Positions 1 through 50,715 of a stretch of DNA of 64,000 bases are shown here, piece by piece. A program made the translations under genes and the position numbers. Under the pieces are notes generated by a model. The model was given only the letters and a program-made list of their open reading frames with translations. It ran no database searches and had not been told where the DNA came from. Within the stretch, counting starts at the first letter, position 1, and every line of letters starts with the position of its first letter. Source of the DNA: a virus. Taxonomy: Duplodnaviria > Caudoviricetes. The stretch covers positions 1 through 64,000 of IMG/VR virus record IMGVR_UViG_2909979649_000007, one strand, 5' to 3'.

Positions 1-1800
1 TCATTCAGCTGTTGCATGCAGATATTCCAATTGATCATTTATCCATTTAACAGCTATTCTCTTTTCGAAACTTTTTGGTAGAGCAGAGCAGAATCCGCTA
101 ACTTCCATGATGTTCAACCTAGACATTCTCAAGTAAAATTCTAATAGCTTCGGTAAGTCATTGGGCTTCAAAATATATTGAATTGTTATTAATTTATTAT
201 ATGACCATTTGTTTACCAACAAAAATTCATTTTTGATTTGACTTAATGCGCTATATAGCCCGCCCTCAGAGTTTATTAATTGGTGTAGGTTAGGCTTTTT
301 CACTGCCAACTCTTTACCAAAAATGCAGATTCCATTATTAATAGATTGGTGCAAAAATAAAGGCGAAAGCAACTCCATTATTTGGCTAGTTATAAACAAT
401 AGGTGTAGCTGATTTTTATCGTCATTTAGGCTAATACCAAAGTCAGTATGTATATTATAATTCATTATCTTTGCATTAATATGTAGTTCACCCTCCAAAT
501 GACTTGACCACTCACTGACAAGAATAAGCAAATCGATATCTCTTGAGTGTTCTGTTTGTAGTGTGCTACCAAATAGATATATAGACTTAATTCCAATACC
601 ATTTGGAATGCACTCAATTATATCGAGAATGATGTTGTTAATTTTTTCCTTTTTAAGAGAGTAATTATATATACACTTAAGTCTTCTTATAGTTCTATTT
701 ATATCTAGTTCACTTTGACATAGTTTGCCAATAACTCTCCGTAACTCAGCATTCCATTCAGGCCAATATTTAGTTAAATACATAACTGATTTTCCAAACT
801 CTATGCTGTTTGGTTCTACAATTGAGATACATTTTGTGTAGCCTTTTAGATAATGACTAATTCCACATCGACTGCTTAGTACAACAGGAGTTCCATGGCA
901 TATAGCTTCTAGTGCAGTTAATGGTCCAGGATCATAAAAGCTGGGAATTATCAGCACATCAATATTCTGAAAGAAATTTTCTAGATTATAAACATATCCT
1001 TGATGTTCGTAAGAAATTTCATTAAATGATAGGCTCCACAGAAGTTGTTTCGCTAATGGTCCACTACCAGCAAGAAATAGTTTTGCCGTGGGCCCTAAGT
1101 ATTTCATGAAATCACATAGTAAATCACACCCTTTTTCAGATGCATATCTTCCTAAATAGCCAATACGCAATCTGTTAATTGGGGAAAAATACTGCTTGGA
1201 ATATTTTTTTATGGGAATACCTAGAGGAAGAACCTCTTTTATGCCTTGAATCGAAAAGTACAGAGTACTATCTAAAGCCGATTTTTTATCAAAGAACGTT
1301 ACGACATCAGAATTTTTTGCTGCCTCCCTTTGTAAATTTAAGGCTAAATTAAGCCCTTTCTTATCTGGCAATTCCAGAAACCCCTTTTTGAGCCTGACGT
1401 TCAGTACAGTATGTATTGTCAAAATTACTGGACAAGAATATTCTTGCCGAATTTTTTTTGCGGCCACCCAACACAACCAATCGTGACAATGAACTATAAT
1501 ACTATTTAAGGGTTGATCCAGATGATTAATAACACTCTCAAATAACGTAAAAAGCTGTTCGTTTTGTTCTATTAGGCTTTCGCTAAAATTGCTGGAGTGA
1601 CCAGAAGGTTCAGTACGATACCAACCCTCTTGAGATAGTCCACCTTTATAGTTATGAAAGCCAGGAAAACTCATAGCTAGAGGGATGTGTTTGACGGCAT
1701 TGCAAGATGATTGCGAATCGAGAAGATAACTTAACCATTTCCCTATTCCAGCTACTTTATCAGGTGGTGCTTCATGAGTTAGATGTATTGCTATTATCAT
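1..1800 (-). CDS. GT4-family glycosyltransferase fused to a C-terminal Pol-beta-type nucleotidyltransferase-like domain
   Basis: GT-B motifs HCHDW, GYLGRYASEKG and PSFYDPGPLTALEA; C-terminal IYLFGS...RDIDLLIL (GS plus DxD). The stop codon is at 1-3, so the ORF is complete. Confidence 0.8.
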   Translation of the reverse strand: MIIAIHLTHEAPPDKVAGIGKWLSYLLDSQSSCNAVKHIPLAMSFPGFHNYKGGLSQEGWYRTEPSGHSSNFSESLIEQNEQLFTLFESVINHLDQPLNSIIVHCHDWLCWVAAKKIRQEYSCPVILTIHTVLNVRLKKGFLELPDKKGLNLALNLQREAAKNSDVVTFFDKKSALDSTLYFSIQGIKEVLPLGIPIKKYSKQYFSPINRLRIGYLGRYASEKGCDLLCDFMKYLGPTAKLFLAGSGPLAKQLLWSLSFNEISYEHQGYVYNLENFFQNIDVLIIPSFYDPGPLTALEAICHGTPVVLSSRCGISHYLKGYTKCISIVEPNSIEFGKSVMYLTKYWPEWNAELRRVIGKLCQSELDINRTIRRLKCIYNYSLKKEKINNIILDIIECIPNGIGIKSIYLFGSTLQTEHSRDIDLLILVSEWSSHLEGELHINAKIMNYNIHTDFGISLNDDKNQLHLLFITSQIMELLSPLFLHQSINNGICIFGKELAVKKPNLHQLINSEGGLYSALSQIKNEFLLVNKWSYNKLITIQYILKPNDLPKLLEFYLRMSRLNIMEVSGFCSALPKSFEKRIAVKWINDQLEYLHATAE

Positions 1801-2996
1801 TAGTTATCTGACCAGTACTTATCAAGACAGCATCGTAATTTCCTATAGCTGATATCCTTTTTCTTGATTAAGTAACTAGGAATAGCTATTGATAGTGCAA
1901 TTAAAGAAGTGATAGCCTGGTCTAATATCATTAATGGCATAAAGTCTCGAAAAAACAAGTTTATAAACAGGACTACCAAAGCTCCATAAACACTGATTCG
2001 AAATATTATTTGATATAACAATTTAATAGATATGTTAGATGATAGATCAATGACTGCAAGATTTGCAAACTTGGATATTTGAAATTCCCAATTCTCTCTT
2101 GCGTTGAAATATTTCTGGTACCTAATAGCTAAGAAAGCACCAATATTGGCAACTCTCTTGCTATTTACAGAATAACTGGAAAGCGCAATCATTGCTAATA
2201 CAGCGGGCAAAGTAAATAAAAACCCAAGTAAAAAAGGTACTTCATTTGACAATGAAATTGTAATAAAGAAACCCCAGATAACTGTTGATGCAGTAACAAT
2301 CATCGATACACCGGATGCATTATTATTTTGTAACTCAGCGACTTCTCTACGTAGAGACTGATATTGTAGTTGAAGCATTTCTGGGTTAGACACAGTTTCA
2401 TTTAGTAATGTATCCTTGAATTCGGTAAGTCCATTATTGATTAAGTCACGAACATTAATGAACTTGACATTGGCTCGCGCAGCCAAATTTCTGTCTTTCG
2501 AAGAGTCTCCGACGTAAATACATTCTTCAAATGTTTTATTAATCGACTGGATAAATCGACATAGTGACTCACAGTCAATGTATTTGTTTGAATCCGAATA
2601 GATATCATCAAATGAAAAAGGAAGTGAGTTATTAGCTACTTGATTTACAATAAAGTCTTTATTTGATCTTGAGAAGATTATATTTTCACACTCCGCTATA
2701 TCAGGTATAGATAGTATCTCCTTGATGCACGGTAACAGATATGGGTTTTTGGGTTGCGCGTTATTGAATAAAATTTCAAACTCTGAATACTCTCGGCTCT
2801 CTAGATTGCTAGACTTGAGTATGTTGTATAGCCCTTGTAATGACATGGGGAGCGCTTGCTGAATGTTATGCCATGTAGTTTCTGGAACTTGGGAATACAT
2901 AGCTACTAGGGCTTCACGAATCCTTCTATTGCTATCTACCAAAGTGTTGTCGAAGTCCCAAATAATAGTTTTCATTGGGTATTCATCAAATGTCAC
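1800..2996 (-). CDS. HAD-family phosphatase fused to a multi-pass membrane domain
   Basis: DFDNT (motif I) and YVGDSSKD (motif IV), then YQSLRREV and about 4 hydrophobic segments. Stop overlaps the next start (TAATG). True start may be 2975. Confidence 0.8.
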   Translation of the reverse strand: MTFDEYPMKTIIWDFDNTLVDSNRRIREALVAMYSQVPETTWHNIQQALPMSLQGLYNILKSSNLESREYSEFEILFNNAQPKNPYLLPCIKEILSIPDIAECENIIFSRSNKDFIVNQVANNSLPFSFDDIYSDSNKYIDCESLCRFIQSINKTFEECIYVGDSSKDRNLAARANVKFINVRDLINNGLTEFKDTLLNETVSNPEMLQLQYQSLRREVAELQNNNASGVSMIVTASTVIWGFFITISLSNEVPFLLGFLFTLPAVLAMIALSSYSVNSKRVANIGAFLAIRYQKYFNARENWEFQISKFANLAVIDLSSNISIKLLYQIIFRISVYGALVVLFINLFFRDFMPLMILDQAITSLIALSIAIPSYLIKKKDISYRKLRCCLDKYWSDN

Positions 2997-3057
2997 GAGA
3001 TAGGTTGACTTAAGACATAAGACTTACATTCAGTGGTATGTCCGCTACAGTGCTTTG

Positions 3058-3867
3058 TTACAGCTCATTACCGATTCTCTTTTGCCTCTCAAGACCAAAA
3101 ATTGGTTGTCGGCGCATACTCTTACAAAAACCATCCAAACCAGGATATATATTGGCTGAATTGATATTCATTTTGTTCAGTTGTCGAAGGCCTTCAAGCC
3201 TCTGACTGGCAGGAATAATAATTTTAAGTACATAACCATTATGAATATTGTAATCATTTAAGATCTTCCCATGGCTTAAGTCTAAAGTGTTCGTAGCTAC
3301 AAATAACCCTTGTTGCGAGAGTAATCGTTGATTAGAGAATGTAGGCTCAAAAGCAAAAAGGCAAGGATCATCTTTTGAGCTAATAGGCTCAAGTATTCTT
3401 GAATAAACTTTGAGTCTATTTTTTCCGAAGTATTCATCATCATCATTACGAATGGCATCATGACTAATGCAATAAACAGAGGCATCTTCTTCACCAAACT
3501 CTAAGGCAAAGTAGAGCGCAACGTAGGGCGAAAACGAAAAATCCAACAGTCTTGTTGGGGCTCCATGGTGCTGCATCAAAGACAACCAACTTAAATGATC
3601 TTCAAATTGAGGCAAGTGATCAAGATACAAATGAGCGTTACATTTGAAACGGTCTATCATTACCTTTTCATGCTCAAACCTACTTAATCGCTTCTCATTG
3701 CCATTTTTCAATTTATGTATTAACTGAGCTTCTTCGAATGCACGATGTAATGAGCTTTCCAGAGGCCAACTCGAGTCAGACTGCCCCCTATAAATCCACT
3801 TGCGAAAATGCTTACACCTTACAAACTCATCAAATTCGCTCCAATTTCTTATGGTTTTAGTATCCAT
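3058..3867 (-). CDS. FRG-domain protein
   Basis: WIYRGQSDSSWPLESSLHR and MQHHGAPTRLLDFSFSPYVALYFA signature motifs. Confidence 0.9.
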   Translation of the reverse strand: MDTKTIRNWSEFDEFVRCKHFRKWIYRGQSDSSWPLESSLHRAFEEAQLIHKLKNGNEKRLSRFEHEKVMIDRFKCNAHLYLDHLPQFEDHLSWLSLMQHHGAPTRLLDFSFSPYVALYFALEFGEEDASVYCISHDAIRNDDDEYFGKNRLKVYSRILEPISSKDDPCLFAFEPTFSNQRLLSQQGLFVATNTLDLSHGKILNDYNIHNGYVLKIIIPASQRLEGLRQLNKMNINSANIYPGLDGFCKSMRRQPIFGLERQKRIGNEL

Positions 3868-4054
3868 CGTGATTCCTAGTTATAACCTAATTAACATTAA
3901 CTGATTAAATTCATAGTTTTTATATCCAGATTAATATTTAACTACTCTCTATAAATAGCTGATTTTTAATAGCTTCAATGAGTTTTATATTTCTATTACA
4001 CGTCTGAGTGGCCTAATATTTTGTGTCATGCTGACGCATAACTCGCTTTATACA

Positions 4055-4990
4055 TCACTTAACTAAACTGACACCTGTTGTATACCCCGAAGCACTTACC
4101 GAATGCTTTGCCTTCTTTACCACCCACCGACCATCAACGCCAATCCTTACTCCTTGAATAATCACAGGCCGTTCAGCGATTAATTCAGGATTACCCACTA
4201 CAGTTATACTTAAACTGGCTTCTGTATCATTTAATCCACTTAGTTTGGCTTTAGCACTGGCTTTGGCTGCTTCCCTGGTCGGATATACCATTTTAATAGT
4301 ATAGGTCGGTTCGCCATTACCCACCTTAACATGCTCTGTCTTACCACCTTCAGCGCTGTGATACTTAGCCATCACACTTTTATAATATTGCCTGTCAGGT
4401 GCTTTTAAACTCCATTTATTAATTTTAGAAATTGTTATAGGTGACAATTGTTTACCAGTAGCCGTTTTAGTTTTTCCTCGCTCGACAAACACTAAATGTT
4501 CCATCATCGGCTTAACAATTGCCCCATGATCTAACGCAATGCGACTTAAAAAATTAATATCAGATTCTTCTGTCTGGTCTATATGATCAATGACAATGGA
4601 GGTAAATACTTCTGCAATTTTAGGTTTCAAACCATTGTCATTGGCCACTGTGGTGACAATATCTACCAACTTTTTTTGATGCCATGAGCGTGATTTAGGG
4701 CTACGGAGTTGATATCGAAGGTTTGCCCCTTTAGCTTGAATGGTCATTTGGTTAGGTGGGCCAGAAAGTGACACTTCATCAATAATAAAATCACCCATAT
4801 GAATGTTCTGGATAGCGACTGATAGCCTAGTGCCTTTGGCGGGTATCGGTAAATTGCCATCATGATCAGAAAGTTTAAGGGTTACGCTATCTGACTTGAT
4901 ACCCGCTTCATCGGTAAGCTCTAGGCTGATTAGGTGGTTTTGGATGTTAATGGGGAACGATGGTATGGTGACTTGATGCTTTATAAACAT
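4055..4990 (-). CDS. Phage late control / baseplate hub protein (P2 gpD-like)
   Basis: LTDEAGIKSDSVTLKL and IDQTEESDINFLSRIA motifs; last gene of the tail operon. Confidence 0.9.
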   Translation of the reverse strand: MFIKHQVTIPSFPINIQNHLISLELTDEAGIKSDSVTLKLSDHDGNLPIPAKGTRLSVAIQNIHMGDFIIDEVSLSGPPNQMTIQAKGANLRYQLRSPKSRSWHQKKLVDIVTTVANDNGLKPKIAEVFTSIVIDHIDQTEESDINFLSRIALDHGAIVKPMMEHLVFVERGKTKTATGKQLSPITISKINKWSLKAPDRQYYKSVMAKYHSAEGGKTEHVKVGNGEPTYTIKMVYPTREAAKASAKAKLSGLNDTEASLSITVVGNPELIAERPVIIQGVRIGVDGRWVVKKAKHSVSASGYTTGVSLVK

Positions 4991-5470: not shown

Positions 5471-5674
5471 TTAGGACCATAAATTCTCAGACACCTGGGC
5501 TTTAAGGACAAGCTTAGGTAGTTTAATCTCAATCCCTGCAGCTAAAACTGGCCCTTGCTCCACTAACCTAGGATTGGCATCTAACACCTGCAGCACAAAG
5601 CTTTCATTACCATAATACTGCTTACAAATCCAATCCAGGGTATCACCGTCTTTGGTTCGGTAGACTGTCGCCAT
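5471..5674 (-). CDS. Tail protein X (P2 gpX, LysM-like)
   Basis: YRTKDGDTLDWICKQYYG...VLDANP motif. Confidence 0.9.
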   Translation of the reverse strand: MATVYRTKDGDTLDWICKQYYGNESFVLQVLDANPRLVEQGPVLAAGIEIKLPKLVLKAQVSENLWS

Positions 5675-6050
5675 AGTAGGTTATGCTCACACTGAATTCA
5701 ATCTTACGGCACTTGCCTTCTTTATCCGGGTAGGAACCGCTTTCACTGACTTGGGTAATACACCAGTAGCCGAGAATTTCACCAGTACCGGCTACCAGGA
5801 TAAAGGGCGCACCTGTACCCGCCAGCTCAACCATATGAAGCAGGCTATCACGACTGCCATACTGGCCAGGGTACATGGTGCCGGTTAAAGTCATGGTTCG
5901 CACGGTTTCCCCGGTATACTGCTGCTGGGGATAACCCCCGATAATAGGCTGACTAGCCCATTTAAATTGCCATTGTTGACGTAGTTGTTGGTAGCTGGCT
6001 GTTTTAATCGAGAAGATAAAATCACCCAGCTTAAGCAATGTATAACTCAT
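5643..6050 (-). CDS. Tail protein (P2 gpU-like)
   Basis: LGDFIFSIKTASYQQLRQQ...IEFSVSITYY. Confidence 0.85.
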   Translation of the reverse strand: MSYTLLKLGDFIFSIKTASYQQLRQQWQFKWASQPIIGGYPQQQYTGETVRTMTLTGTMYPGQYGSRDSLLHMVELAGTGAPFILVAGTGEILGYWCITQVSESGSYPDKEGKCRKIEFSVSITYYGDSLPNQRR

Positions 6051-39529: not shown

Positions 39530-39560
39530 TTACTTAAAATATACTTAATTTATACTTAAA
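39530..39560 (+). repeat. Three TACTTAA direct repeats with an 11-bp period (possible Int arm or Xis sites)
   Basis: Units start at 39531, 39542 and 39553. Confidence 0.45.
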
Positions 39561-39590
39561 GAAGAATGATTCTTAATTGCAGAAAGGATG

Positions 39591-39603
39591 TAAGTAATTG
39601 AAT
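39591..39603. promoter_or_regulatory. IHF-like site, left of the att core
   Basis: TAAGTAATTGAAT, one mismatch to YAANNNNTTGATW. Confidence 0.45.
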
Positions 39604-39617
39604 CTAAAGAGAAAAAA

Positions 39618-39662
39618 TGGTCGGAGTGAGAGGATTCGAACCTCCGACCCCCACAACCCCAT
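39618..39662 (-). other. att site: 3' half of tRNA-Pro(GGG), anticodon loop to CCA
   Basis: ATGGGGT-TGTGG-GGGTC-GGAGGTTCGAATCCTCT-CACTCCG-ACCA; the 5' half is absent. Confidence 0.9.
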
Positions 39663-39682
39663 ATATATCCTATGATCTAGTA

Positions 39683-39695
39683 TAACCTATTGATT
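39683..39695. promoter_or_regulatory. IHF consensus site, right of the att core
   Basis: TAACCTATTGATT matches YAANNNNTTGATW. Confidence 0.6.
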
Positions 39696-40186
39696 TTATT
39701 GAAAAAAGCACCCTCTTGTCCTACACCCATTATAGCCATTATACCCCCTTATGAATCCTGGGCTACAAGGTGCATATTGCAGACATTCTGGGCCTTTGGG
39801 ATAGGTAACACCTGTCGTGGTTAAAATTTAGGCTTCTTGTCTTTTGATCTATCGTCTAACAATCGATCCCCTACCCCACTCAGCTGGCCTCTACTTTTCA
39901 TTCTGAAGACGCTCCACTTTCTATAAATTCAGGCCATTACCAGAACCAATATTTAGATTAATTATTTATATTTATAGATGTTTTTATAACCTTAATATAT
40001 CGCTTTTACGTCAATAAGGTCCTTTTGCATCAGTTAGTGAACTAAATACACAACAGATCAATTTATCGTTTGGTTCTAAAAATATTTCCTGGAAGAATTT
40101 CCCCTAATTTTTCAGTATCATAGCTTTTTAAATAGCACCAGGTGTGAATACACCCTTTTTCAATCATTGATTAACAAGGGCTAAGA

Positions 40187-40408
40187 ATGTCTGAAAATAA
40201 ACCCTGGAATAATAACCAAATACAAAAGTTAATAGCTGAGTTAAACCAATCGTCGTTGACGACAGATGAGATTGGTCATGTGAGCATAGAAGAGTATAAG
40301 GAGTTAAAAAATAAATATTTAAAAGTGACTATGAAAGCTATAGAAATGGAGCAAGCTTTACGCACAATTAATAGAGCATCAAATATTGCTCTTTTGGATG
40401 AGTGTTAA
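40187..40408 (+). CDS. Hypothetical protein (coiled)
   Basis: 73-aa ORF. Confidence 0.45.
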   Translation: MSENKPWNNNQIQKLIAELNQSSLTTDEIGHVSIEEYKELKNKYLKVTMKAIEMEQALRTINRASNIALLDEC

Positions 40409-40573
40409 TATCGAAGAATAAGTTATCTGGTTAGCTATGGTGTTGAAGTACATAGCAAGCCGAAAAATAAGCTGTAAGTAACCGTGTTTAGTCTTGCTTC
40501 CAGCCACATCATATAGCAGGCCCAATATTGGGTTAGCTTTCCTTTCTTGTTCCTTTTTCATGTTCTTTGTCAA
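40379..40573 (-). CDS. Hypothetical small protein
   Basis: 64-aa ORF, convergent overlap. Confidence 0.3.
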   Translation of the reverse strand: MTKNMKKEQERKANPILGLLYDVAGSKTKHGYLQLIFRLAMYFNTIANQITYSSILTLIQKSNI

Positions 40574-40762
40574 GCTTGATTGGGTGGTATTTTCTACGTA
40601 GTTACCGAGCCATAATCACTCACACTTATGATTAATTACTTTCCCTATAACTGAAATTAATAAACGTGAATTAAATTTGATCTTTGCTTGTGTGTGAGTA
40701 AAAATTGCGCATTTTCATGTTTGCAAAACATAGTTTTGATCGTTTCAGAAGTGGATGTGTGA

Positions 40763-42307
40763 ATGAGCATTAATGTAAAGTTGTCTTTCTTGTTGGGGGC
40801 TGGGTTAGCCTCAGTTCTTTGTTGTAGCACTCAGGCTGAAGTTAGATGGTATGCTCCTTACACTTCACATGATCCATGGAAAACAGACAGTATATCAGGT
40901 GTCTATGTAGCCACTCCCTATGAGTCTTGCATAGAGCAGATGAATTCGTATCAGCGTTCTGCAGATGCTTTTAGGAAAGATGGCCGAGGATATAGTTTTT
41001 TAGCTGTTGAAAATACTTATTGGGCAGGGAAGGTAAATCCTAATTTTAAAAAGTGCTCTTATTTATTTACTTATCCAAATGGCTATAGCTATCAATGGCA
41101 CCTGAATGCAGGTCTTCAAGGAAAAGGGTGTGAGTCTCCTTTAGTCTTTGACGAGAAAGTCAGTGGTTGTATTAACAAAAATGCACAGCCTCAAAGCTGC
41201 GAGACGTTAAAAGGAAACCCTGTCAATATTGCTACAGGCAATAAAATTCAGTGGTTTACTGACTTAAGCTTGTCCAACTTATCTATTAAGCGCCTTTATC
41301 TTCAAGCAGGTAAAACGGGTAGTTGGCGTTTTAGCTTTAGTCGTAAGTTAAGTGTTTATCTCAGTGCCGATAACCTCATTGCCCACATCACTCGTGACAA
41401 CGGCCAGGAAGTAGTTATGTACCAAGAAGATGGTGTTTGGCAGGATGATGATGCTAACGGTTATCAAGTTAAGGCATTGGAAAATGGTCAATACCAGCTA
41501 GTAACAGCTGCTAACTTAACCGAGACCTATGATAATCAAGGCCGCTTAATTAAAGTTGAGTCTCCCTCACAGCAGGCAATAGAATTGGCTTATGAGGATA
41601 AAAAGTTAGTTATTAGTCAAGGCAATTCATCGATTAACTATCACCTCAACGATAATCAGCAAATTACCCGTATTGAAAGCGGTAGTTTAGTGCGTAATTA
41701 TCAATATGATGAGCAAGGTCAATTAACGAGTGCTGATTTTAATGGTAACTATAAGGAAACCTACCATTATGAGAATGATCAGTATCCTACCTTATTAACG
41801 GGTATTACCAACGCGAACAATCAACGTTATGCTACTTGGCAGTATGATGAAAAGGGCCGTGCCACAGTTAGTAAACACGCAGGGGATGTAGATAATGTTA
41901 CGTTTAGCTATCCTGATGAAAACTCAACGACTGTTACTAATCCTCTCGGTAAGAAAACCACGTATCGTTTTGAGGAAATAAATGGTTTTCGTAAAGTAAA
42001 ATCAGTGGAAGGTCATGCCTCTGCTAATTGCTTAGCCGCTAATAAAGACTACGAATATTTCGATAATGGGTTATTAAAATCCAAAACCGATTGGCAAGGT
42101 GTTAAAACTACTTATCAATATAATGATCGTGGTTTAGCAACTGAAAAAACAGAAGCGGCAGGTACACCACAAGCTCGAACAGTATCCACGGAATGGCACG
42201 AAACCTTTAGTTTACCAGTAAAGGTGACAGAACCAGGTAAAACCACCATTTACGAATATAGCGATAAAGGCCAGCTAACAAGTCAACGGCAGGAAAGCGC
42301 TAAATAA
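40763..42307 (+). CDS. Rhs/YD-repeat protein, N-terminal chain (signal peptide, DUF6531-like domain, YD repeats)
   Basis: Signal peptide ending STQA; GNPVNIATGNK; repeated YD units; no Rhs core. Confidence 0.88.
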   Translation: MSINVKLSFLLGAGLASVLCCSTQAEVRWYAPYTSHDPWKTDSISGVYVATPYESCIEQMNSYQRSADAFRKDGRGYSFLAVENTYWAGKVNPNFKKCSYLFTYPNGYSYQWHLNAGLQGKGCESPLVFDEKVSGCINKNAQPQSCETLKGNPVNIATGNKIQWFTDLSLSNLSIKRLYLQAGKTGSWRFSFSRKLSVYLSADNLIAHITRDNGQEVVMYQEDGVWQDDDANGYQVKALENGQYQLVTAANLTETYDNQGRLIKVESPSQQAIELAYEDKKLVISQGNSSINYHLNDNQQITRIESGSLVRNYQYDEQGQLTSADFNGNYKETYHYENDQYPTLLTGITNANNQRYATWQYDEKGRATVSKHAGDVDNVTFSYPDENSTTVTNPLGKKTTYRFEEINGFRKVKSVEGHASANCLAANKDYEYFDNGLLKSKTDWQGVKTTYQYNDRGLATEKTEAAGTPQARTVSTEWHETFSLPVKVTEPGKTTIYEYSDKGQLTSQRQESAK

Positions 42308-42383
42308 AATCAATTAATTTAAATTGCTAGGCGGCACTAGACCGCCTTGGCCAGGTTTTAAATTTATTTTGAGTAGTCATATT

Positions 42384-45014
42384 ATGCAGTTTAAACAGAC
42401 TTTATTAGCCGGGGCTTTATCGTTAGTTATTTCCCCGTTAGCGCTTTCAGCGATCACTACTAATACCAGCTATCAATATAATGACCAGAACAAGGTTAGC
42501 CAAATTGATGGTCCACGCACTGATGTGCAAGATATCACTCAATTTCGTTACAACAATGAAGGGCAATTAACCGAAGTTGTTAATGCACTGGGACATTCGA
42601 CACAATTATCTGACCATAATGCCTTTGGAAATCCCCAGAAAATTACTGATGCTAATGGCACGGTAACTAATCTGTCCTATGATGAGATGGGGCAATTAAC
42701 CCAATCCACTATTAAAAGTACAGCGGGTGATATCACCACTCGCTTTGAATACGATGCCATTGGCCAAGTGACAGCGATCTATTTACCCAATAGCAGTGAA
42801 TTGCATTATGAATATGATGGAGCGAAACGTTTAACGGCTATTCAAAATGGTTTAGGCGAGCGTGTCGAATATCAACACGATAATGCTGGGAATATTACTA
42901 AGCAGGTCGTTAAATCTTCTACTGGCGCAGTAGTCAGCCAATTTAGCCAGGCTTATGATGAAATGAGTAGACTGTTAAAGTCTGTTGGCGCTAATGGTCA
43001 AACCAGCCGGTTTGAATACGATAAAAACAGTAATACAACAGGTGCAACTAATCCTCGTAATTATAAAAGTGGTAATGCGTATGATGCGTTAAATCGGTTA
43101 GTCACTAGCACTGATGCATTAAACCAAAACACCCAATTTAAATACGATTCGCAAGATAATTTAACCCAAGTCACTGACCCGCGCGGCGTTACCACCACTT
43201 ATCAATATGATGGTTTAGGGCGTTTGGTAAAAGAAGTCAGCCCTAGCAGTGGTGAAACGGTTTATAGCCATGATGCCGCCGGTAATGTGACTCAAAAGGT
43301 AGATGGCCGTGGTGTTGTTACCAAATACAGCTATGACGCTTTAAACCGTCAAACCAGCCGGTCTTATCCTGCTAGTCCAGAGCTGAATGTTACTTACCTT
43401 TATGATGGCACCAATGATGGTAACAAAGGCATTGGCCGCTTAACGGGCATTCAGGATCAATCAGGCTTAATTGCTTACCAATATGATGACCGGGGTAATG
43501 TTACCAAAACCATGCGCTCGGTTAGCTTCAATGGTAAGGATCAATTCTTTGGTGTGGCCTATGGCTACAACCTAGCTAACCAACTGACTCGTATCCAATA
43601 CCCCTCTGGTTTAACTATCAGCTACCAACGCAATAGCAATGGGCAAGTTAACCAGGTTACCGGTCAATTTAAGGGCAGCGATCAGGTCATTAATTTAGCC
43701 AACAATATTGGCTATGTACCGTTTGGCCCTGTACAACAACTGACGTGGGGTAATGGGAAAACCTTAAACCGCCAATATGATCAGGACTTACAGTTAATTC
43801 AGCAAACGGTACAAGGCATCCAAGAGCTGAATTACCAGTACGATCCAAACGGAAACATTACCGGCATTGATAACTTATTAGCTCAGCAAAACAACAGCTC
43901 ATATGGTTATGATGCGTTAGACCGCTTAATCGAAGAGCAAGCTAACTATGGCCGTAAAACCTATGAATATGATCCGGTCGGTAACCGTACTAAGCGTACA
44001 ACCGAAAAAGCCGGTAAAACTGAAACCCAAAAACTAACTTATGCCGAAAACAGCAACCGCTTAATCAAGCATGAAGAAAGCAATGTCAGTTATGACGGCA
44101 TGGGCAATACCCAAAATAATGGTAATGGTTTACAGCTCCAATATGATGGTCAAGGGCGATTAAAAGCTGTTGTTAAAGGTGGAACTACCCAAGCTGAATA
44201 CCGTTATAACGCGATTGGCGAACGATTAGTAAAAGTCTTAAATAACCAAACCGTTATTTACAACTATGACCAAAACGGGCAACTGTTAGCAGAAGCTTAT
44301 TACAACGCTAACAACCAGCTGTTCTACACCCGCAACTATGCATGGTTAGGTACTCAACCAATTGCCATGTTAGAGCAATGGCTAAACGACAAAGGCCAAA
44401 GCACTAAACAGCAAGTGGCGTATATTCACAGTGATCACCTTAACACCCCGCGAGTTGCCTCCAATACAGCAGGCCAGGCTGTTTGGCAGTGGCAATCAGA
44501 TGCCTTTGGGGTTGGCCGGGCCAATGAAGATGTTGATGGCAATGGCCAGAAAACAGTGGTTGCACTGCGTTTTCCTGGGCAGGTTTTTGACCCAGAGTCA
44601 GGACTACACTACAACTACTTTAGGGATTATGACCCTAACCTTGGACGCTATGTTCAGAGTGATCCGATTGGACTTGAAGGTGGACTGAATACTTATGCTT
44701 ATGTATTGGGTAACCCTCTAAAATACTCAGACTCTACTGGAGAGGCAGCAAATCCAGTATCAACTGCTGGAGGAGCAGTCCTTGGCTTCGGTTGGGGAGT
44801 AGTAAGTGAAGTTACTTCTCAAATTCAAAATGGATTTGATCCAGTAAAAATCATATTATACCCGATTGCTGATGGAGTAACAGGAGCAATGGCTTGTAGT
44901 ATGAATCCATATTTAATGGGAGGAGCATATCCTGCAAATACTACTATGAAGCGTGCTGCTGATGCATTATCTAATGGCTTAAAAGAAGCAATGTCAGGTA
45001 TGGCAGGCAATTAA
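42384..45014 (+). CDS. Rhs protein, C-terminal chain (own signal peptide, YD repeats, Rhs core, 90-aa tip)
   Basis: MQFKQTLLAGALSLVISPLALSA; RFPGQ...SGLHYNYFRDYDP...GRYVQSDPIGLEGG...DSTG. Confidence 0.92.
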   Translation: MQFKQTLLAGALSLVISPLALSAITTNTSYQYNDQNKVSQIDGPRTDVQDITQFRYNNEGQLTEVVNALGHSTQLSDHNAFGNPQKITDANGTVTNLSYDEMGQLTQSTIKSTAGDITTRFEYDAIGQVTAIYLPNSSELHYEYDGAKRLTAIQNGLGERVEYQHDNAGNITKQVVKSSTGAVVSQFSQAYDEMSRLLKSVGANGQTSRFEYDKNSNTTGATNPRNYKSGNAYDALNRLVTSTDALNQNTQFKYDSQDNLTQVTDPRGVTTTYQYDGLGRLVKEVSPSSGETVYSHDAAGNVTQKVDGRGVVTKYSYDALNRQTSRSYPASPELNVTYLYDGTNDGNKGIGRLTGIQDQSGLIAYQYDDRGNVTKTMRSVSFNGKDQFFGVAYGYNLANQLTRIQYPSGLTISYQRNSNGQVNQVTGQFKGSDQVINLANNIGYVPFGPVQQLTWGNGKTLNRQYDQDLQLIQQTVQGIQELNYQYDPNGNITGIDNLLAQQNNSSYGYDALDRLIEEQANYGRKTYEYDPVGNRTKRTTEKAGKTETQKLTYAENSNRLIKHEESNVSYDGMGNTQNNGNGLQLQYDGQGRLKAVVKGGTTQAEYRYNAIGERLVKVLNNQTVIYNYDQNGQLLAEAYYNANNQLFYTRNYAWLGTQPIAMLEQWLNDKGQSTKQQVAYIHSDHLNTPRVASNTAGQAVWQWQSDAFGVGRANEDVDGNGQKTVVALRFPGQVFDPESGLHYNYFRDYDPNLGRYVQSDPIGLEGGLNTYAYVLGNPLKYSDSTGEAANPVSTAGGAVLGFGWGVVSEVTSQIQNGFDPVKIILYPIADGVTGAMACSMNPYLMGGAYPANTTMKRAADALSNGLKEAMSGMAGN

Positions 45015-45354: not shown

Positions 45355-45951
45355 TTAAGTTTCTACAAAAAACCCCACTTTGAATTATGTTTTAAAATCA
45401 AGCTTTCCAATAAAGCTTTAGCGATTTTAATCTCTTCCTCATCAAACTGATTGAGAGAGCCTCAAACTGGTGTTTCAGCTCTATCTCTAGGCTCTCCGTT
45501 TGAAGATTGATTCAAGGTGGAGCACACTAAACTACTAGTATACACTTTGATGGTAATCAAAGTAGATAAGCCCCTGCTAATCAGCGGGCTTACCTGCTCT
45601 CCCCTCCTATCGTTTATCACCTTGTTCATCTACTTCGTATACGCTTGCCACCCATCCAGGCAAAGATAGGCTTAGACATGGAGTCTCCTTCTACAAGGTG
45701 TAGCGAACCAAATTACCGTCATACTTTTTACCAAATTATTGGTCGTACAGTTTGGTGGTTATTTAGGGAAGGTGCGATGAAGGTTAATAAGGCTAGGGGT
45801 AATTGGCGCTTCATTCTACTGGCTGTTTTGTGTTGTCGCTTAAGTAGAATAGTAGATATTTTGAAGAAAATAAATTTTCTGGTGTTTTTTAATGGTTAGA
45901 TTAATATCTTCTTGATCTCAATAGAGGATAGTTGCAATAAGCTCAACTGTA

Positions 45952-48612
45952 TTAATTTTGAGAATCCACAAGCTTAAGATCAAACTTCTTATGGTCACGA
46001 TTATATTTTATGACTTCGATTTCCACCCAATCACCTTCTTCATAACTATCCAAAGACTCTATATTTTTGAGTTTGCTTTTGTGAACTAAGCCAGTTCCAT
46101 TTAAGCCAAATTCTACAAAAAAGCCATATTTTTGGATAGATACTACCTGAGCAGCAACTTGTAGTCCTGGAGGGTACTCATCTTCTAATCTTTTTACAGT
46201 ACAATATTGATAATCATTTCCAGCAACTGATGTAACATAATCGTAGATATTGGATATATAGTCATCATTTATGTTAGTATCTTCTTTGAGGATTTTTGCA
46301 TAACCCATAAAATAGCTTTTATGATATGAATTCATATAATCTATAAGGTATTTAGCATTGCTAATCTGTGACTGTTTAGAGTCATTTCTAAATTTACCCC
46401 TTCCAATGAGATTATCTGCTATGCTTTTAGCTACTTGATTTTCTCTAAATAAAGTATCTTCCGATATTGCTGATAAGTAACTTATATTTTTCAACAGTTC
46501 AAGGTGGATTATACCTGCTGGTGAAATGGAAACAAGATCTTCTATATTAATATCAGATTTCTGAGCCTCAGAGCTAACACAACCTGAGAGTATTAAGCTT
46601 GATAGCTCGATTAAAATTCTTGAATGGGAGTGACCGTAAGACTGAAGATTTTGTACCAAGCTTCCAACTTTATGGAATCCCTTTGTTTTATTAGGACCAT
46701 ACTCTCTAAACTTAGAGTGTAACCACTCTAATATAGCAATTCTAACAAATGGATCTGGAAGACTATCCTCACTATCAGAGTTAAATAGATTTTTTATATG
46801 GGACTCCTGGTCACTATAGTACTTCCTCTTTCCCTTCAAAAGTATCTTAGCTATTAAATAATTAGGTAGTCGATAATCTCCATTTGACTGCCTAACCTTT
46901 AAAATTTCACTTTCGCTAATATGTCCACTTTTACAAAAATATAATATAATTTCTAGTCCTTTTCTTATATTACGACCTGCTATTCCAGATATTATTCTTT
47001 TAAACATCCTATCTTGAAAAAGAGATGCGATCATCGACTTTAAATATTTTCCTATATCAACACGAGAGCACACAACCTTCATATCGTTTGGCAAAAAATA
47101 TACGAAGTCTGTGTTCTGTTTTTGAATTTCTCTCAGCACATAATTAAGACGTTCATATATAACTCTATCCAACAGCGGAGGATCAATTCTAAATACTAAA
47201 TCTTTTATTACAGTATCAAGTGGAGGTTCATTTCGAAATTGATCGTATGTAGTATCTCTAATTGGCAGAAAGACCATGGTCAAAAAACTGCTCTTTAGCC
47301 ATGAAGCCACCTCAAACATAAGAAGTTGATCATCGCGATTTCGTTTGTCACAATTATCTAGCACAATGACTAATAGTTTATTTTTTTTAACAAAATAATG
47401 ATTTATTATCCCTCTCAAAGTTGCACTATGATCGTGCTGCAGCCTTGTAATTTCATTATATATTACATCTATATACTTCTCTGAATCTTTTGGATATAGT
47501 GAAGCTATTTTTTCTGTTTTCTCTAGCTCTTTAGAGTATATTTTCTTTAGCTCTTCTATACTATCAAAATCTATCTTTGAGTGATTTTTTTTAATTTCAT
47601 TAATAGTTTCACTAACAATCCAAGTATATATAAGCTCTCTAGATAGAGGTGCTTTATTGAGATTTAAATTTACCCACTCAGTTGAGAGTCTTATTGACTC
47701 AGGTAATGCCTTTATGCGAAGGTAATCGGTAAATGTTGATTTTCCTGACCCCACGCTACCAATTAGAAGACATATTTCATTTGAAATTTTTTGTGTGTTA
47801 GATAGTTGTTCAGTGATTTCTGTAGGAAATTCGGTATCTTGCAGAGACCTGGCATTAATTATATGCTCAGGTATTGCAGCTCTGACTATTTTATCAATTG
47901 GAGAGATATGGGAAAGTTTTCGTTTTGATTTTACATAAGCATTTTGAACTATTGCAGCGCGATCTTCAGCAGTATCAGGATTAAATAGACATTTGTACTC
48001 TACTGAGATATTTGCACCAAATGAGTTTTCTCCAACTGTTTCATTTTTTACAGATTTTCCGCCAAGCAAGTAAACTGGTTTATAGTATTTTGCTGACTTC
48101 TTTATTTTGAGTAATATATCTTGACTTCTAGACAAGACAGTTTTTTTTGAAAGAAAATCAATTAATGCTGAAAAATTTGTATCAACTGAACTAAAATTTT
48201 TAGATTCGACAAAAATCTCGATTTTGTTTCTATCACAATATCCTGCCGCAACAACCATCCCATCTGTTACTACAATTTTCTCACATGGATTGATGTTTTT
48301 AGGATAAGATGCATTTATTTCATTTGCATATAGACGAGCTTCCCTTAACGCTTCGTCAATGTCTTCACCAGGTTTTTTAGCCTCAACTATTACTGAAGGC
48401 ACACCGTCAACAATAATTGCATAATCTGGATAATATAATTTTTTATTAGCGCCTTTATCAATAGCCAACTTTCTAATGTCTGGCTTCGTTCTAAAATCTG
48501 TATCCGAATAGCCTAAGCCTATAGGCTCCCCTTCTGTAAGAAGCCTATATATGAATTTCTGTTCTACATCACTCTCAGTTAACAATTCCAATTCACTATA
48601 AACTTTATACAT
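45952..48612 (-). CDS. HsdR-N-like nuclease, P-loop ATPase and C-terminal S1 domain in one protein
   Basis: YPDYAI...IVEAKKP; GSVGSGKST; VIVLDNCD; VVSIQKYGFFVEF...GLVHKS...GDWVEIEVI. Confidence 0.82.
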   Translation of the reverse strand: MYKVYSELELLTESDVEQKFIYRLLTEGEPIGLGYSDTDFRTKPDIRKLAIDKGANKKLYYPDYAIIVDGVPSVIVEAKKPGEDIDEALREARLYANEINASYPKNINPCEKIVVTDGMVVAAGYCDRNKIEIFVESKNFSSVDTNFSALIDFLSKKTVLSRSQDILLKIKKSAKYYKPVYLLGGKSVKNETVGENSFGANISVEYKCLFNPDTAEDRAAIVQNAYVKSKRKLSHISPIDKIVRAAIPEHIINARSLQDTEFPTEITEQLSNTQKISNEICLLIGSVGSGKSTFTDYLRIKALPESIRLSTEWVNLNLNKAPLSRELIYTWIVSETINEIKKNHSKIDFDSIEELKKIYSKELEKTEKIASLYPKDSEKYIDVIYNEITRLQHDHSATLRGIINHYFVKKNKLLVIVLDNCDKRNRDDQLLMFEVASWLKSSFLTMVFLPIRDTTYDQFRNEPPLDTVIKDLVFRIDPPLLDRVIYERLNYVLREIQKQNTDFVYFLPNDMKVVCSRVDIGKYLKSMIASLFQDRMFKRIISGIAGRNIRKGLEIILYFCKSGHISESEILKVRQSNGDYRLPNYLIAKILLKGKRKYYSDQESHIKNLFNSDSEDSLPDPFVRIAILEWLHSKFREYGPNKTKGFHKVGSLVQNLQSYGHSHSRILIELSSLILSGCVSSEAQKSDINIEDLVSISPAGIIHLELLKNISYLSAISEDTLFRENQVAKSIADNLIGRGKFRNDSKQSQISNAKYLIDYMNSYHKSYFMGYAKILKEDTNINDDYISNIYDYVTSVAGNDYQYCTVKRLEDEYPPGLQVAAQVVSIQKYGFFVEFGLNGTGLVHKSKLKNIESLDSYEEGDWVEIEVIKYNRDHKKFDLKLVDSQN

Positions 48613-48679
48613 TTCTTTTCTCTTATTCCAAATAACTATTTTATGGAATTTCCTGGTTAACTAGCATGAATTCTTTGAC

Positions 48680-49660
48680 TCAACTTTTACTATTGTATGT
48701 ATTAAAACCACTAGAATTACTTCCGACAAACCTGAAATTTGTTTTATTGAAAATTTTGAATAACCATTGTGTAAGTATAAGAAACTCATATATACTGTTT
48801 CCTATTTCATATTCTTTAGTTGATTCTTTAATAACCTCATTTCCAAGTAATTTAGATGCTTCTTCAGAATCAATAACAAAGTTATGATCTTTATAATGAT
48901 TAGTAAAATGATCAGCAAGAGAACTAGCTGATAGATTTCCAGGCAGACTTTTTCCAATTAATAACCTCTCTGCATATTGAGCTGCTGATTCGTTTAGACG
49001 TTCAAACAAGCCAAGTTGTACAACACTAACTTTCTCTGCTAAGAATTTAGCAAACATATCTGAAGCACTTGGAAATTTAGAGGTCATTTCTGCAACTTTC
49101 TCAATTGCATTAGCTAAGCCTAAAGCAGGAAACCCCTGTATTTGAGGATCAATTGGCCCCAATTCACTCAATAATCCCATATGAACTTCATTTGCTCCTA
49201 GTGCTATTAAAGTTGCTGCTGATTTAGCTAGACGAGGTACTAAAACATTAAATTTTGACTTTGCTAATTTTTTACATGTTTTGCTAATTAAGTAAGCAGG
49301 CTCAATTTGCCCCCCATTTGAATGAAGTATCATAAGAATATCTTTATCTTTAGAATCTTTTATAGCATGATATATCTGGTTTGCGTGAAAGCTATTTATT
49401 GGGTTTTCGTCATCAAACAGGTAAATTATATTGTAGCTAGATAGATTAGTTTCCTTAGTTAGATCACATAAATGGGCTGATATTATTTTTTTTATATTAT
49501 CTTCAGGTTCTTTATTTCGAAACATTTCAACATATTCTTCTTCGTTGAATTTTTTGCTTACAGTTTCTTTTTTATCTTGTTTGGTATTTGTTATTTTAAA
49601 CTCATCTACTACTTCCTTCTTATTTTCCATGCTTGCAATGTTTTCAATTGATGAGTTCAT
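48680..49660 (-). CDS. ClpP-class (SDH_sah/S49-like) serine protease, cytoplasmic
   Basis: LHSNGG, AKSAATLIALGA, ELGPIDPQ; no signal peptide. Confidence 0.85.
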   Translation of the reverse strand: MNSSIENIASMENKKEVVDEFKITNTKQDKKETVSKKFNEEEYVEMFRNKEPEDNIKKIISAHLCDLTKETNLSSYNIIYLFDDENPINSFHANQIYHAIKDSKDKDILMILHSNGGQIEPAYLISKTCKKLAKSKFNVLVPRLAKSAATLIALGANEVHMGLLSELGPIDPQIQGFPALGLANAIEKVAEMTSKFPSASDMFAKFLAEKVSVVQLGLFERLNESAAQYAERLLIGKSLPGNLSASSLADHFTNHYKDHNFVIDSEEASKLLGNEVIKESTKEYEIGNSIYEFLILTQWLFKIFNKTNFRFVGSNSSGFNTYNSKS

Positions 49661-49707: not shown

Positions 49708-50715
49708 TTAGTTACTTACCCCAACAGCACTCACCGAACATCGACACCCCATCGATTTATTGCCTCTAAACATCACCCGCTCAATCGACCACTTACCTTG
49801 CATATGAGCAGGAAAACTCCCATCCAATTCGATTAATCCTTCAGCCACTAATAACGGATTAGCCGGCATTTCTAAAGAAATATTCACCCCTTTACGCCCT
49901 ACTTTCCTTAATTGACGTTCACCAATTTCTCTGGCTTTAGCTTCACTATCAAACAGGTGCCGTAGTTTTTTATAGGCAGGCTTTCCTATTTTCACTTCTC
50001 GTTCCTTAGCGGCTTTTCCATCCCACCAGAGAGTGACCACACCATTATATTTACCTCGACTCGGTAAAGTGGCATGTGCATTAATAAAATTATGATTTGT
50101 CGGCTGGTTATTGGCAGGCAAACCCACTTTAACAGTCGATAACTTTTTACCCGATATGCTTTTCAGCTGTCCTTTTTTAGCCAGTACATACAGCTTATTG
50201 ATAGGCTTAGCTACCGCATCATACTGCCTGGCTAACCGAGTAATAAACGACATATCCGTTTCGTCGGTTTGATCGACATGACTCACTATAATTTTAGCTA
50301 ATGCTGGATCGACGCGAGGTAAAAAACCGTGTTTTTTTACGATATTTTCAAATAACACACCGAGTGTATATTGCTCATAGGACTGTGACCGTCTTTTCTT
50401 AAACGCACTGTCATCTTTCACCTGAAATGGTGCTGCGGTGGCGACTATGGTTATTTCCATCGGAAATAATTTAGCGTTAATCCGAGTAATTAAAAACTCG
50501 CCTTTATCGTAGGGAACACCTTGATAATTCAGTATTAATCCTATTCGTTCGCCTTCTTTCGGTAGTCCAGGTAGCCCTTCTGCATCGACGACTAGTTTTA
50601 ATTGGTCAGACTGATGACCATCGGCATCGGTTAATTCCCAGGAAATGAGCCGTTGATTAATAATCTTGGCATGCGCCCCCGTCATGGTAGGATATACGCG
50701 ATAATCTAATCCCAT
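49708..50715 (-). CDS. Late control / baseplate hub protein D
   Basis: LTDADGHQSDQL and HVDQTDETDMSFITRLA. Confidence 0.9.
   Translation of the reverse strand: MGLDYRVYPTMTGAHAKIINQRLISWELTDADGHQSDQLKLVVDAEGLPGLPKEGERIGLILNYQGVPYDKGEFLITRINAKLFPMEITIVATAAPFQVKDDSAFKKRRSQSYEQYTLGVLFENIVKKHGFLPRVDPALAKIIVSHVDQTDETDMSFITRLARQYDAVAKPINKLYVLAKKGQLKSISGKKLSTVKVGLPANNQPTNHNFINAHATLPSRGKYNGVVTLWWDGKAAKEREVKIGKPAYKKLRHLFDSEAKAREIGERQLRKVGRKGVNISLEMPANPLLVAEGLIELDGSFPAHMQGKWSIERVMFRGNKSMGCRCSVSAVGVSN

Follow-up and report, generated by a model that had tools for sequence, protein, structure and literature searches.

At the left edge of the DNA examined here, the first 64,000 nucleotides (nt) of the virus record IMGVR_UViG_2909979649_000007 (Duplodnaviria; Caudoviricetes; hereafter the window, equal to G000:C1:4419598-4483597 of the host genome), a prophage carries three tightly coupled genes whose combination of a cyclodipeptide synthase (CDPS) with these partners and with mobile carriage looks undescribed in the literature searched. 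The first encodes a HAD phosphatase joined to a domain of four transmembrane (TM) helices (HAD-TM), the second a GT4-type glycosyltransferase (GT) fused to a Pol-beta nucleotidyltransferase (NTase), and the third a divergent relative of the CDPSs. This trio is outside CBASS, Gtr-type conversion modules and the described CDPS clusters. Its gene content, coupling, conservation, mobile-element context and the intact motifs of its four enzyme domains were observed directly. Four intact catalytic domains in tightly coupled genes would be explained best by a small-molecule pathway of several steps, located on the inner side of the membrane. We read the trio, tentatively, as conflict cargo: a membrane-associated pathway, fed by aminoacyl-tRNA, that may be directed against phages or competitors.

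Gene organization

Three open reading frames (ORFs), all on the minus strand, follow the tail gene gpD (3867..3058, 2996/2975..1800 and 1800..1). The HAD-TM frame encodes 398 amino acids (aa) from a GTG at 2996, or 391 aa from an ATG at 2975; the ATG is the likely start, since the alignment with the homologue at metagenomic locus L003 begins at Met8, and that homologue itself starts at the equivalent Met. The GT-NTase frame encodes 599 aa and has its stop codon at window bases 3..1. Its ATG and the stop codon of the HAD-TM gene have one base in common, within the sequence TAATG at 1802..1798. The next gene on the same strand lies almost wholly beyond the window (G000:C1:4418967-4419614; 215 aa) and begins with 17 nt that overlap the end of the GT-NTase gene; this is the CDPS-like gene, the fourth after gpD. 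Upstream, a gap of 82 nt separates the HAD-TM gene from the first of the ORFs, an FRG-domain gene. GC content across window positions 1-4000 was 32-37%, as against 40-51% in the tail genes. A promoter and terminator scan gave no signal exceeding that of shuffles. Among the sequencing runs matching the module, one soil metagenome held two identical 151-nt contigs, both within the GT gene and too little to indicate a habitat, and no RNA data set was listed.

A divergent cyclodipeptide synthase-like enzyme

The fourth gene matched no Pfam family at E<=1, and neither it nor its close relatives P0015-P0018 reached the gathering score of the CDPS family, PF16715. A profile of the gene and its relatives did match the PDB entry 9gun_A ('CDPS from Porphyromonas gingivalis') at E=1e-14 over positions 6-192 of 204, and FoCDPS at 7.7e-4. 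Against 1.84 billion representative proteins the same profile returned 498 matches, with Pfam-verified CDPSs (1e-13 to 1e-15) placed just past a few close relatives. Five residues (Ser13, Asp45, Tyr144, Glu148 and Tyr166) were invariant in a 15-sequence alignment that included Pfam-verified CDPSs. We take Ser13, Tyr144, Glu148 and Tyr166 to be the catalytic set, corresponding to S37, Y178, E182 and Y202 of AlbC; Tyr166 is followed by Pro, as in the CDPSs of the XYP type. Given this homology and the kept catalytic residues, the gene is predicted to encode a divergent, apparently catalytically intact enzyme of the aminoacyl-tRNA-dependent CDPS family.

The likeness to known CDPSs thus extends over nearly the full length of the protein, the catalytic Ser/Tyr/Glu/Tyr, the Tyr-Pro pair and the size (about 205-215 aa). 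The differences are that the gene falls below the Pfam model, belongs to a tiny subfamily with motifs of its own (SIFKPRF and IADLPE), and is carried on a prophage or beside Tn7-like genes. CDPSs are known as secondary-metabolite enzymes. In the clusters described for them the partners are oxidases, P450s and methyltransferases, whereas here they are a GT4-NTase fusion and a HAD phosphatase with four TM helices.

A phosphatase fused to a membrane domain

The N-terminal half of the HAD-TM protein matched Pfam HAD_2 at 4.7e-12 (residues 11-182), covering the entire model (1-178/178). Motif I (DFDNT, of the form DxDxT) and motif IV (GDSSKD, of the form GDxxxD) are kept in the homologues and, with the capped Rossmannoid core, place the domain in the HAD superfamily. 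The HAD-IA match in NCBIfam was below threshold (19.2 bits against a cut-off of 23.3), and PADLOC-DB v2 returned nothing for the protein but 'Hydrolase' at 5.5e-4. The substrates of capped HADs are small phospho-metabolites, not macromolecules.

In the C-terminal half, four hydrophobic helices form two hairpins whose outer loops are very short, and 46 columns were invariant in an alignment of three homologues. No Pfam family matched it at E<=10. A sequence search with the TM domain returned solely the window's own protein and also missed the known L003 homologue. Its structural look-alikes in Atlas were unnamed proteins of ~200 aa (TM-scores of 0.71 and 0.62); the AF2 model of the full HAD-TM protein was poor (pLDDT 50).

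The glycosyltransferase-nucleotidyltransferase fusion

Residues 1-385 of the second protein matched Pfam Glycos_transf_1 at 1e-16, and the AF2 model (pLDDT 72) has an N-terminal GT-B domain. The two-Rossmann fold and the C-terminal sugar-nucleotide site, with an EX7E-like D-x7-E motif (YDPGPLTALE), assign this domain to the GT4 enzymes of GT-B fold. Leading Foldseek matches were GlgM, BshA, MshA, sucrose-phosphate synthase (SPS) and OtsA, with E down to 5e-16 for GT4 enzymes; VIA gave a Z of 26.9 to BshA and SPS, followed by GlgM, MshA, OtsA and TreT.

GT4 enzymes that act on lipids or lipopolysaccharide (PimA, WaaG and DGD2) scored a few units lower (VIA Z 19-22), and these relatives lend something to a different account of the trio, namely envelope or lipid modification. 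By lysogenic conversion or superinfection exclusion, an altered surface would block phage adsorption or injection: the GT4 domain would make a glyco(phospho)lipid at the inner leaflet, the HAD domain would dephosphorylate it in the manner of PgpC, and the CDPS-like enzyme would aminoacylate it from aminoacyl-tRNA as an analogue of MprF. Prophage morons often modify the cell surface, the phosphatase is membrane-anchored, and relatives of the CDPS-like gene invariably adjoin membrane proteins. Against this stand the absence of Gtr, Wzx/Wzy, polyprenyl-phosphate and acyltransferase genes from the module, the position of the homologues outside O-antigen and capsule clusters, and the lack of any role for the NTase; moreover, we know of no CDPS-family enzyme that acylates lipids. 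We consider envelope modification quite improbable. O-antigen or serotype conversion was rejected as a class: neither GtrA/GtrB/GtrC nor Wzx/Wzy occurs in the window unit or at L003-L007, whose flanks carry transposition genes and other cargo.

The C-terminal part of the fusion (residues 386-599) matched Pfam Polbeta at residues 394-460 with 29.1-32.5 bits against a cut-off of 26.9, around the residues FGS...DIDLL. It contains the superfamily motif hG[GS]x9-13Dh[DE]h as FGSTLQTEHSRDIDLL, and the GS...DxD signature is kept in four loci (the window, L003, L005 and L015); the NTase halves of L003 and L015 nearly reach the Polbeta threshold. Past DxD, where a third catalytic carboxylate was sought, the invariant columns of the alignment were His/Leu/Phe. 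A profile of the NTase part gave weak matches to MNT, to the archaeal minimal NTase AF0614 and to streptomycin adenylyltransferase (E 0.03-0.06), and its structural matches in Atlas were NTP_transf_2/DUF4037 clusters at a TM-score of ~0.5. Searching the NTase half against PDB by phmmer found nothing, and structure searches with the full-length GT-NTase model (Foldseek and VIA) were filled by GT-B matches.

Conservation and rarity of the trio

The trio recurs, in the same order and with overlaps at both junctions, in JGI metagenomes at loci L003/L004, where the HAD-TM protein (389 aa) is 50% identical to that of the window, the GT-NTase (598 aa) 38% and the CDPS-like protein (204 aa) 45%. At L003 it adjoins a Tn7-like element with tnsA, an rve transposase, tniB and tniQ. 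The trio is found again at L005, an NCBI assembly, with the NTase part interrupted. No FRG gene precedes the trio at L003, since the 432 nt 5' of the HAD-TM gene hold no ORF at all. The missing FRG gene at L003/L004 divides the window's region into two cargo units, the FRG gene and the trio; FRG as an operon member was accordingly set aside. Between the trio and tniQ, L003:4119-6381 encodes a 446-aa ComEC-like protein of metallo-beta-lactamase fold and a 254-aa protein without family, which may be a second cargo pair.

These results settle several claims of an earlier note, made from the letters of the window alone. It had described three AT-rich, co-oriented genes behind the last tail gene, translational coupling of the last two, and FRG, HAD plus about four TM, and GT4 plus Pol-beta NTase domains; gene positions, composition and coupling were confirmed, and Pfam and hydropathy upheld the domain calls. 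The C-terminal domain was also borne out as an NTase, by the above-threshold Polbeta match, the weak NTase profile matches and the structural matches in Atlas. Its three-gene operon held for HAD-TM and GT-NTase, which occur together at L003/L004 and L005, but not for FRG, which is absent there, and the CDPS-like partner beyond the window edge had been missed. Homologues proved to lie outside O-antigen and capsule clusters, with Tn7-like transposition genes for neighbours, and the cargo position it had proposed agrees with a slot that is rich in defence genes among sister prophages (below).

The trio is extremely rare in the data searched. A set of 5.8 billion clustered proteins yielded only 2 close relatives of the GT-NTase. 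Searches of the two other species in the genus and of 58 further relatives did not recover the trio, nor did a search of 400 genomes of the class, where only distant CDPS matches appeared. A pattern scan with the CDPS profile found no relatives in 185,579 species-representative GTDB genomes, IMG/VR or JGI contigs, and tblastn with the GT-NTase and CDPS-like proteins gave no match in 50,697 phage and 72,556 plasmid records. The metagenome pattern scan and a word-based search missed the known L003 homologue, so these counts are lower bounds.

The tightest conserved linkage is that of the NTase to the CDPS-like gene, which overlap or abut in that order in five loci; at L007 and L015 the NTase C-terminal half lies directly 5' of the CDPS-like gene, with a small TM protein encoded after it. 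This linkage speaks for a module directed at tRNA, in which the NTase (CCA-adding, MenT or AbiEii-like) and the CDPS-like enzyme would act on tRNA 3' ends and stall translation during infection by depleting or marking specific (aminoacyl-)tRNAs. CDPSs bind aminoacyl-tRNA, and the fourth gene is homologous to 9gun; Pol-beta NTases include tRNA-modifying toxins. This scheme is nonetheless very improbable: no PADLOC match of AbiE or MenT type was found, a capped HAD and a GT4 domain suggest small-molecule substrates, anchoring to the membrane would go unexplained, and CDPS turnover merely deacylates a tRNA that can be recharged afterwards.

The common theme of the CDPS-like clade is pairing with a membrane protein. 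In the wider clade, on integrase-bearing elements, the partners are a 13-TM protein with weak similarity to sodium/solute symporters and a small TM protein. Both accompany a CDPS-like enzyme of a different subfamily at L006:806-3558, L038:2-1567 and L039:2783-5737, the last of which also has integrases, ArdC and PIN genes; L016:2-916 has only the small TM protein and that different CDPS type, and L037:557-2713 has a more distant 13-TM and CDPS pairing. These loci amount to a second module, likewise undescribed. At L006, a CDPS of the window's own subfamily heads the 13-TM operon, without an NTase.

A possible small-molecule pathway

We infer the substrates, step order, product and biological role of the trio from the chemistry of the families involved. 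The reconstructed pathway would be as follows: the GT4 domain would transfer a sugar from a nucleoside diphosphate sugar onto a phosphorylated acceptor. The capped HAD domain, anchored at the inner face of the membrane through the four-TM domain, would then strip the acceptor phosphate. The CDPS-like enzyme would take one or two aminoacyl groups from aminoacyl-tRNA by way of its catalytic Ser, giving a cyclodipeptide or an aminoacyl moiety, and the NTase would nucleotidylate a hydroxyl of the intermediate, like ANT/Lnu-type enzymes, or alternatively regulate a partner. The product would have an antiviral or antibacterial role in conflict.

The GT4 and HAD steps would together follow the synthase/phosphatase logic of OtsA/OtsB, SPS/SPP and MshA/MshA2. 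The small-molecule logic is supported by the structural matches of the GT to BshA, MshA, SPS, GlgM and OtsA, which use small or phosphorylated acceptors, and by the full HAD_2 match in light of the substrate preference of capped HADs. It is also supported by the pairing of related CDPS-like genes with a 13-TM symporter-like protein, as CDPS pathways with exporters are known. Low GC content, the variable slot between gpD and dam, and the Tn7-like neighbours support conflict cargo. A bolder form of the proposal, which we regard as doubtful, is a new anti-phage or inter-bacterial system, spread by prophages and Tn7-like transposons, in which aminoacyl-tRNA would be channelled, at the membrane, into a (di)peptide bearing a glycosyl and/or nucleotidyl group; this product would serve either as an antiviral compound or as an immune signal of a new type.

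Among known systems, OtsA-OtsB, SPS-SPP, MshA-MshA2 and the thiol-cofactor pathways (BshA; MshA with MshC) resemble the trio in coupling a GT-B/GT4 enzyme with a HAD phosphatase, and BshA and SPS are the closest structural matches. Sequence identity is only 12-17%. In the mycothiol pathway MshC, an enzyme resembling class I aminoacyl-tRNA synthetases, adds the amino acid, a step to which that of the CDPS fold might be likened. The trio differs in that its phosphatase is fused to a four-TM domain and its GT to a Pol-beta NTase. Furthermore, those are housekeeping loci, whereas the trio is mobile-element cargo with aminoacyl-tRNA as the would-be amino-acid donor.

Several points weigh against a biosynthetic pathway of this kind. 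Its weakest step is the role of the NTase. To our knowledge, GT4, Pol-beta NTase and HAD enzymes are not usual tailoring enzymes of CDPSs, and we found no literature linking CDPSs to anti-phage defence, prophages or NTase or GT partners. Because the fourth gene misses the Pfam CDPS model, it may carry out other aminoacyl-tRNA chemistry. The ranking by Foldseek and VIA within GT4 does not fix the acceptor, WaaG and PimA being only slightly lower, and the two-hairpin TM domain resembles a transporter less than it does an anchor or effector. The comparative sample is tiny, at 2 full loci plus fragments. As for conflict, the defence-rich slot amounts to guilt by association, and the prophages also carry Rhs toxins.

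The NTase and the membrane domain could instead belong to nucleotide-signalling abortive infection, in which the NTase would make a signal or guard molecule, the GT and CDPS-like enzymes would modify it or sense infection, the HAD domain would degrade or read it, and the four-TM domain would permeabilise the membrane. Every locus complete enough to judge pairs the NTase with a membrane protein; the TM domain combines loops on the cytoplasmic side with tiny ones outside, as is seen in effector and anchor domains; and the module sits in a defence-rich slot and beside Tn7-like genes. GT4 domains have been predicted to act as effectors of conflict systems (PMC8195603). The GT domain does touch the GT4-conflict family PF20706 (27.8 bits against a cut-off of 26), but that match is confined to 49 residues within the common sugar-nucleotide site. 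In PADLOC-DB v2 the NTase fits no model of CBASS, AbiE or any other NTase-based system, the sole match being PDC-S09 at E=0.004, and no SMODS, SAVED, CARF, TIR or cNMP-binding domain was found. The HAD domain, for its part, has intact residues of a small-molecule-type phosphatase and is not a known ligand sensor, and signalling would leave the aminoacyl-tRNA-dependent enzyme without a role. We judge this account improbable. The model of the earlier note, with the GT-NTase as signal maker, the HAD domain as reader and the TM domain as effector, thus gained no specific support; an aminoacyl-tRNA-dependent enzyme together with the GT4/HAD pairing fits a biosynthetic pathway better.

Membership of CBASS, defined by a CD-NTase or SMODS domain and a signal-binding effector, was rejected, as neither PADLOC nor Pfam gave a match. 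CBASS with TM effectors and the Hailong pair HalB/HalA share with the trio a Pol-beta-superfamily NTase, a multi-TM protein and a place within a phage-borne, defence-rich slot. In the trio, however, the TM protein has a catalytic HAD domain instead of a signal-binding domain, and those systems have no counterpart of its GT4 and CDPS-like enzymes.

The trio matters because it ties a CDPS-like enzyme to a membrane phosphatase and a GT4-NTase fusion, in a slot otherwise occupied by anti-phage genes and also beside Tn7-like genes. Should it protect against phages, bacterial immunity would gain small molecules derived from aminoacyl-tRNA; should its product be secreted, three mobile genes would offer a compact route to a new glyco- or nucleotidyl-dipeptide scaffold. 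A natural comparison set is provided by the sister prophages, whose slots hold other cargo.

The variable cargo slot

In this myovirus-type prophage the trio occupies a slot between gpD and a border formed by the 5' end of a gene for a dam-type DNA methylase (MSKPIFAW..GKRRL), which lies ~90-250 nt past the fourth gene and recurs in most copies (Table 1). A gpD of ~90% identity was found in at least five prophages of the host genome and in five more of a sister species (G402). The content of the slot differs in every lineage and varied among 11 related prophages, and the dam gene is longer or intact in the sister prophages L032 and L034. The slots form a natural hotspot series. This context, with the Tn7-like neighbours at L003, indicates that the trio is horizontally moved cargo in a place where conflict genes collect.

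In the window's copy the slot holds the FRG gene and the trio. The FRG protein matched Pfam FRG (PF08867) at 1.4e-24, the phage family phrog_4962 at 2e-38 and the PADLOC PDC-S15 model PDLC04937 at 1.2e-51 over residues 4-253; relatives are found in phages, for example in the end region of Peduovirus P22H1. It fits the PDC-S15 models over its whole length, although PDC-S15 is only a candidate and not a characterised system, and here the gene merely neighbours the trio. We consider FRG a separate single-gene cargo and defence candidate, outside the conserved trio.

Table 1. Coordinates of the trio, the bordering genes and other contents of the gpD-dam slot. Positions are those of the window unless another sequence is named.
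Feature	Location	Strand	Basis or remark
FRG-domain protein	3058..3867	-	269 aa; Pfam FRG
HAD phosphatase domain of HAD-TM protein	2436..2975	-	Pfam HAD_2
Coiled-coil, four-TM domain and stop codon of HAD-TM gene	1800..2414	-	Hydropathy, 4 segments
GT4 (GT-B fold) domain of GT-NTase, residues 1-385	646..1800	-	Pfam Glycos_transf_1
Pol-beta NTase core and C-terminal helical/hairpin subdomain, residues 386-599, and stop	1..645	-	Pfam Polbeta
CDPS-like gene, first 17 nt	1..17	-	Remainder at G000:C1:4418967-4419597
gpD-like tail/baseplate hub gene	4055..4990	-	Pfam Phage_GPD, PF05954; conserved right slot border
GpU, P2-type tail gene	5643..6050	-	
dam 5' remnant, window's prophage	L002:14213-14398 = G000:C1:4418809-4418994		Truncated
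dam border, tandem neighbour prophage	45541-45698		
gpD copies in host	G000:C1 ~85 kb, 1.28 Mb, 1.40 Mb, 4.42 Mb, 4.61 Mb		
Related gpD loci compared	L028-L036		DNA downstream of each gpD
PD-T7-5 homologue, sister species	L032:10889-11914		1.7e-109
TM-Mrr_cat nuclease protein	L030:8663-9904		
K-channel-like protein	L028:1128-1922		
DUF3574/SAM-lyase-like protein	L029:11542-11931		

A second prophage lies in tandem with that of the trio. Behind its gpD-B (50715..49708), the slot at 45952-49660 contains a gene for a ClpP/SDH-type serine protease (49660..48680) and an 886-aa nuclease (HSDR_N)-NTPase-S1 gene; the two may be a pair. The left arms of the tandem prophages (L002:7263-12415 and window 39544-44704) are 94% identical and carry an integrase and a two-gene Rhs toxin; they diverge at the toxin tips and in the immunity region downstream. 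A transposase-like ORF at L002:5141-5818, which appeared by eye to be of the IS6/IS26 type, lies immediately outside the integrase of the prophage (L002:6016-7179).

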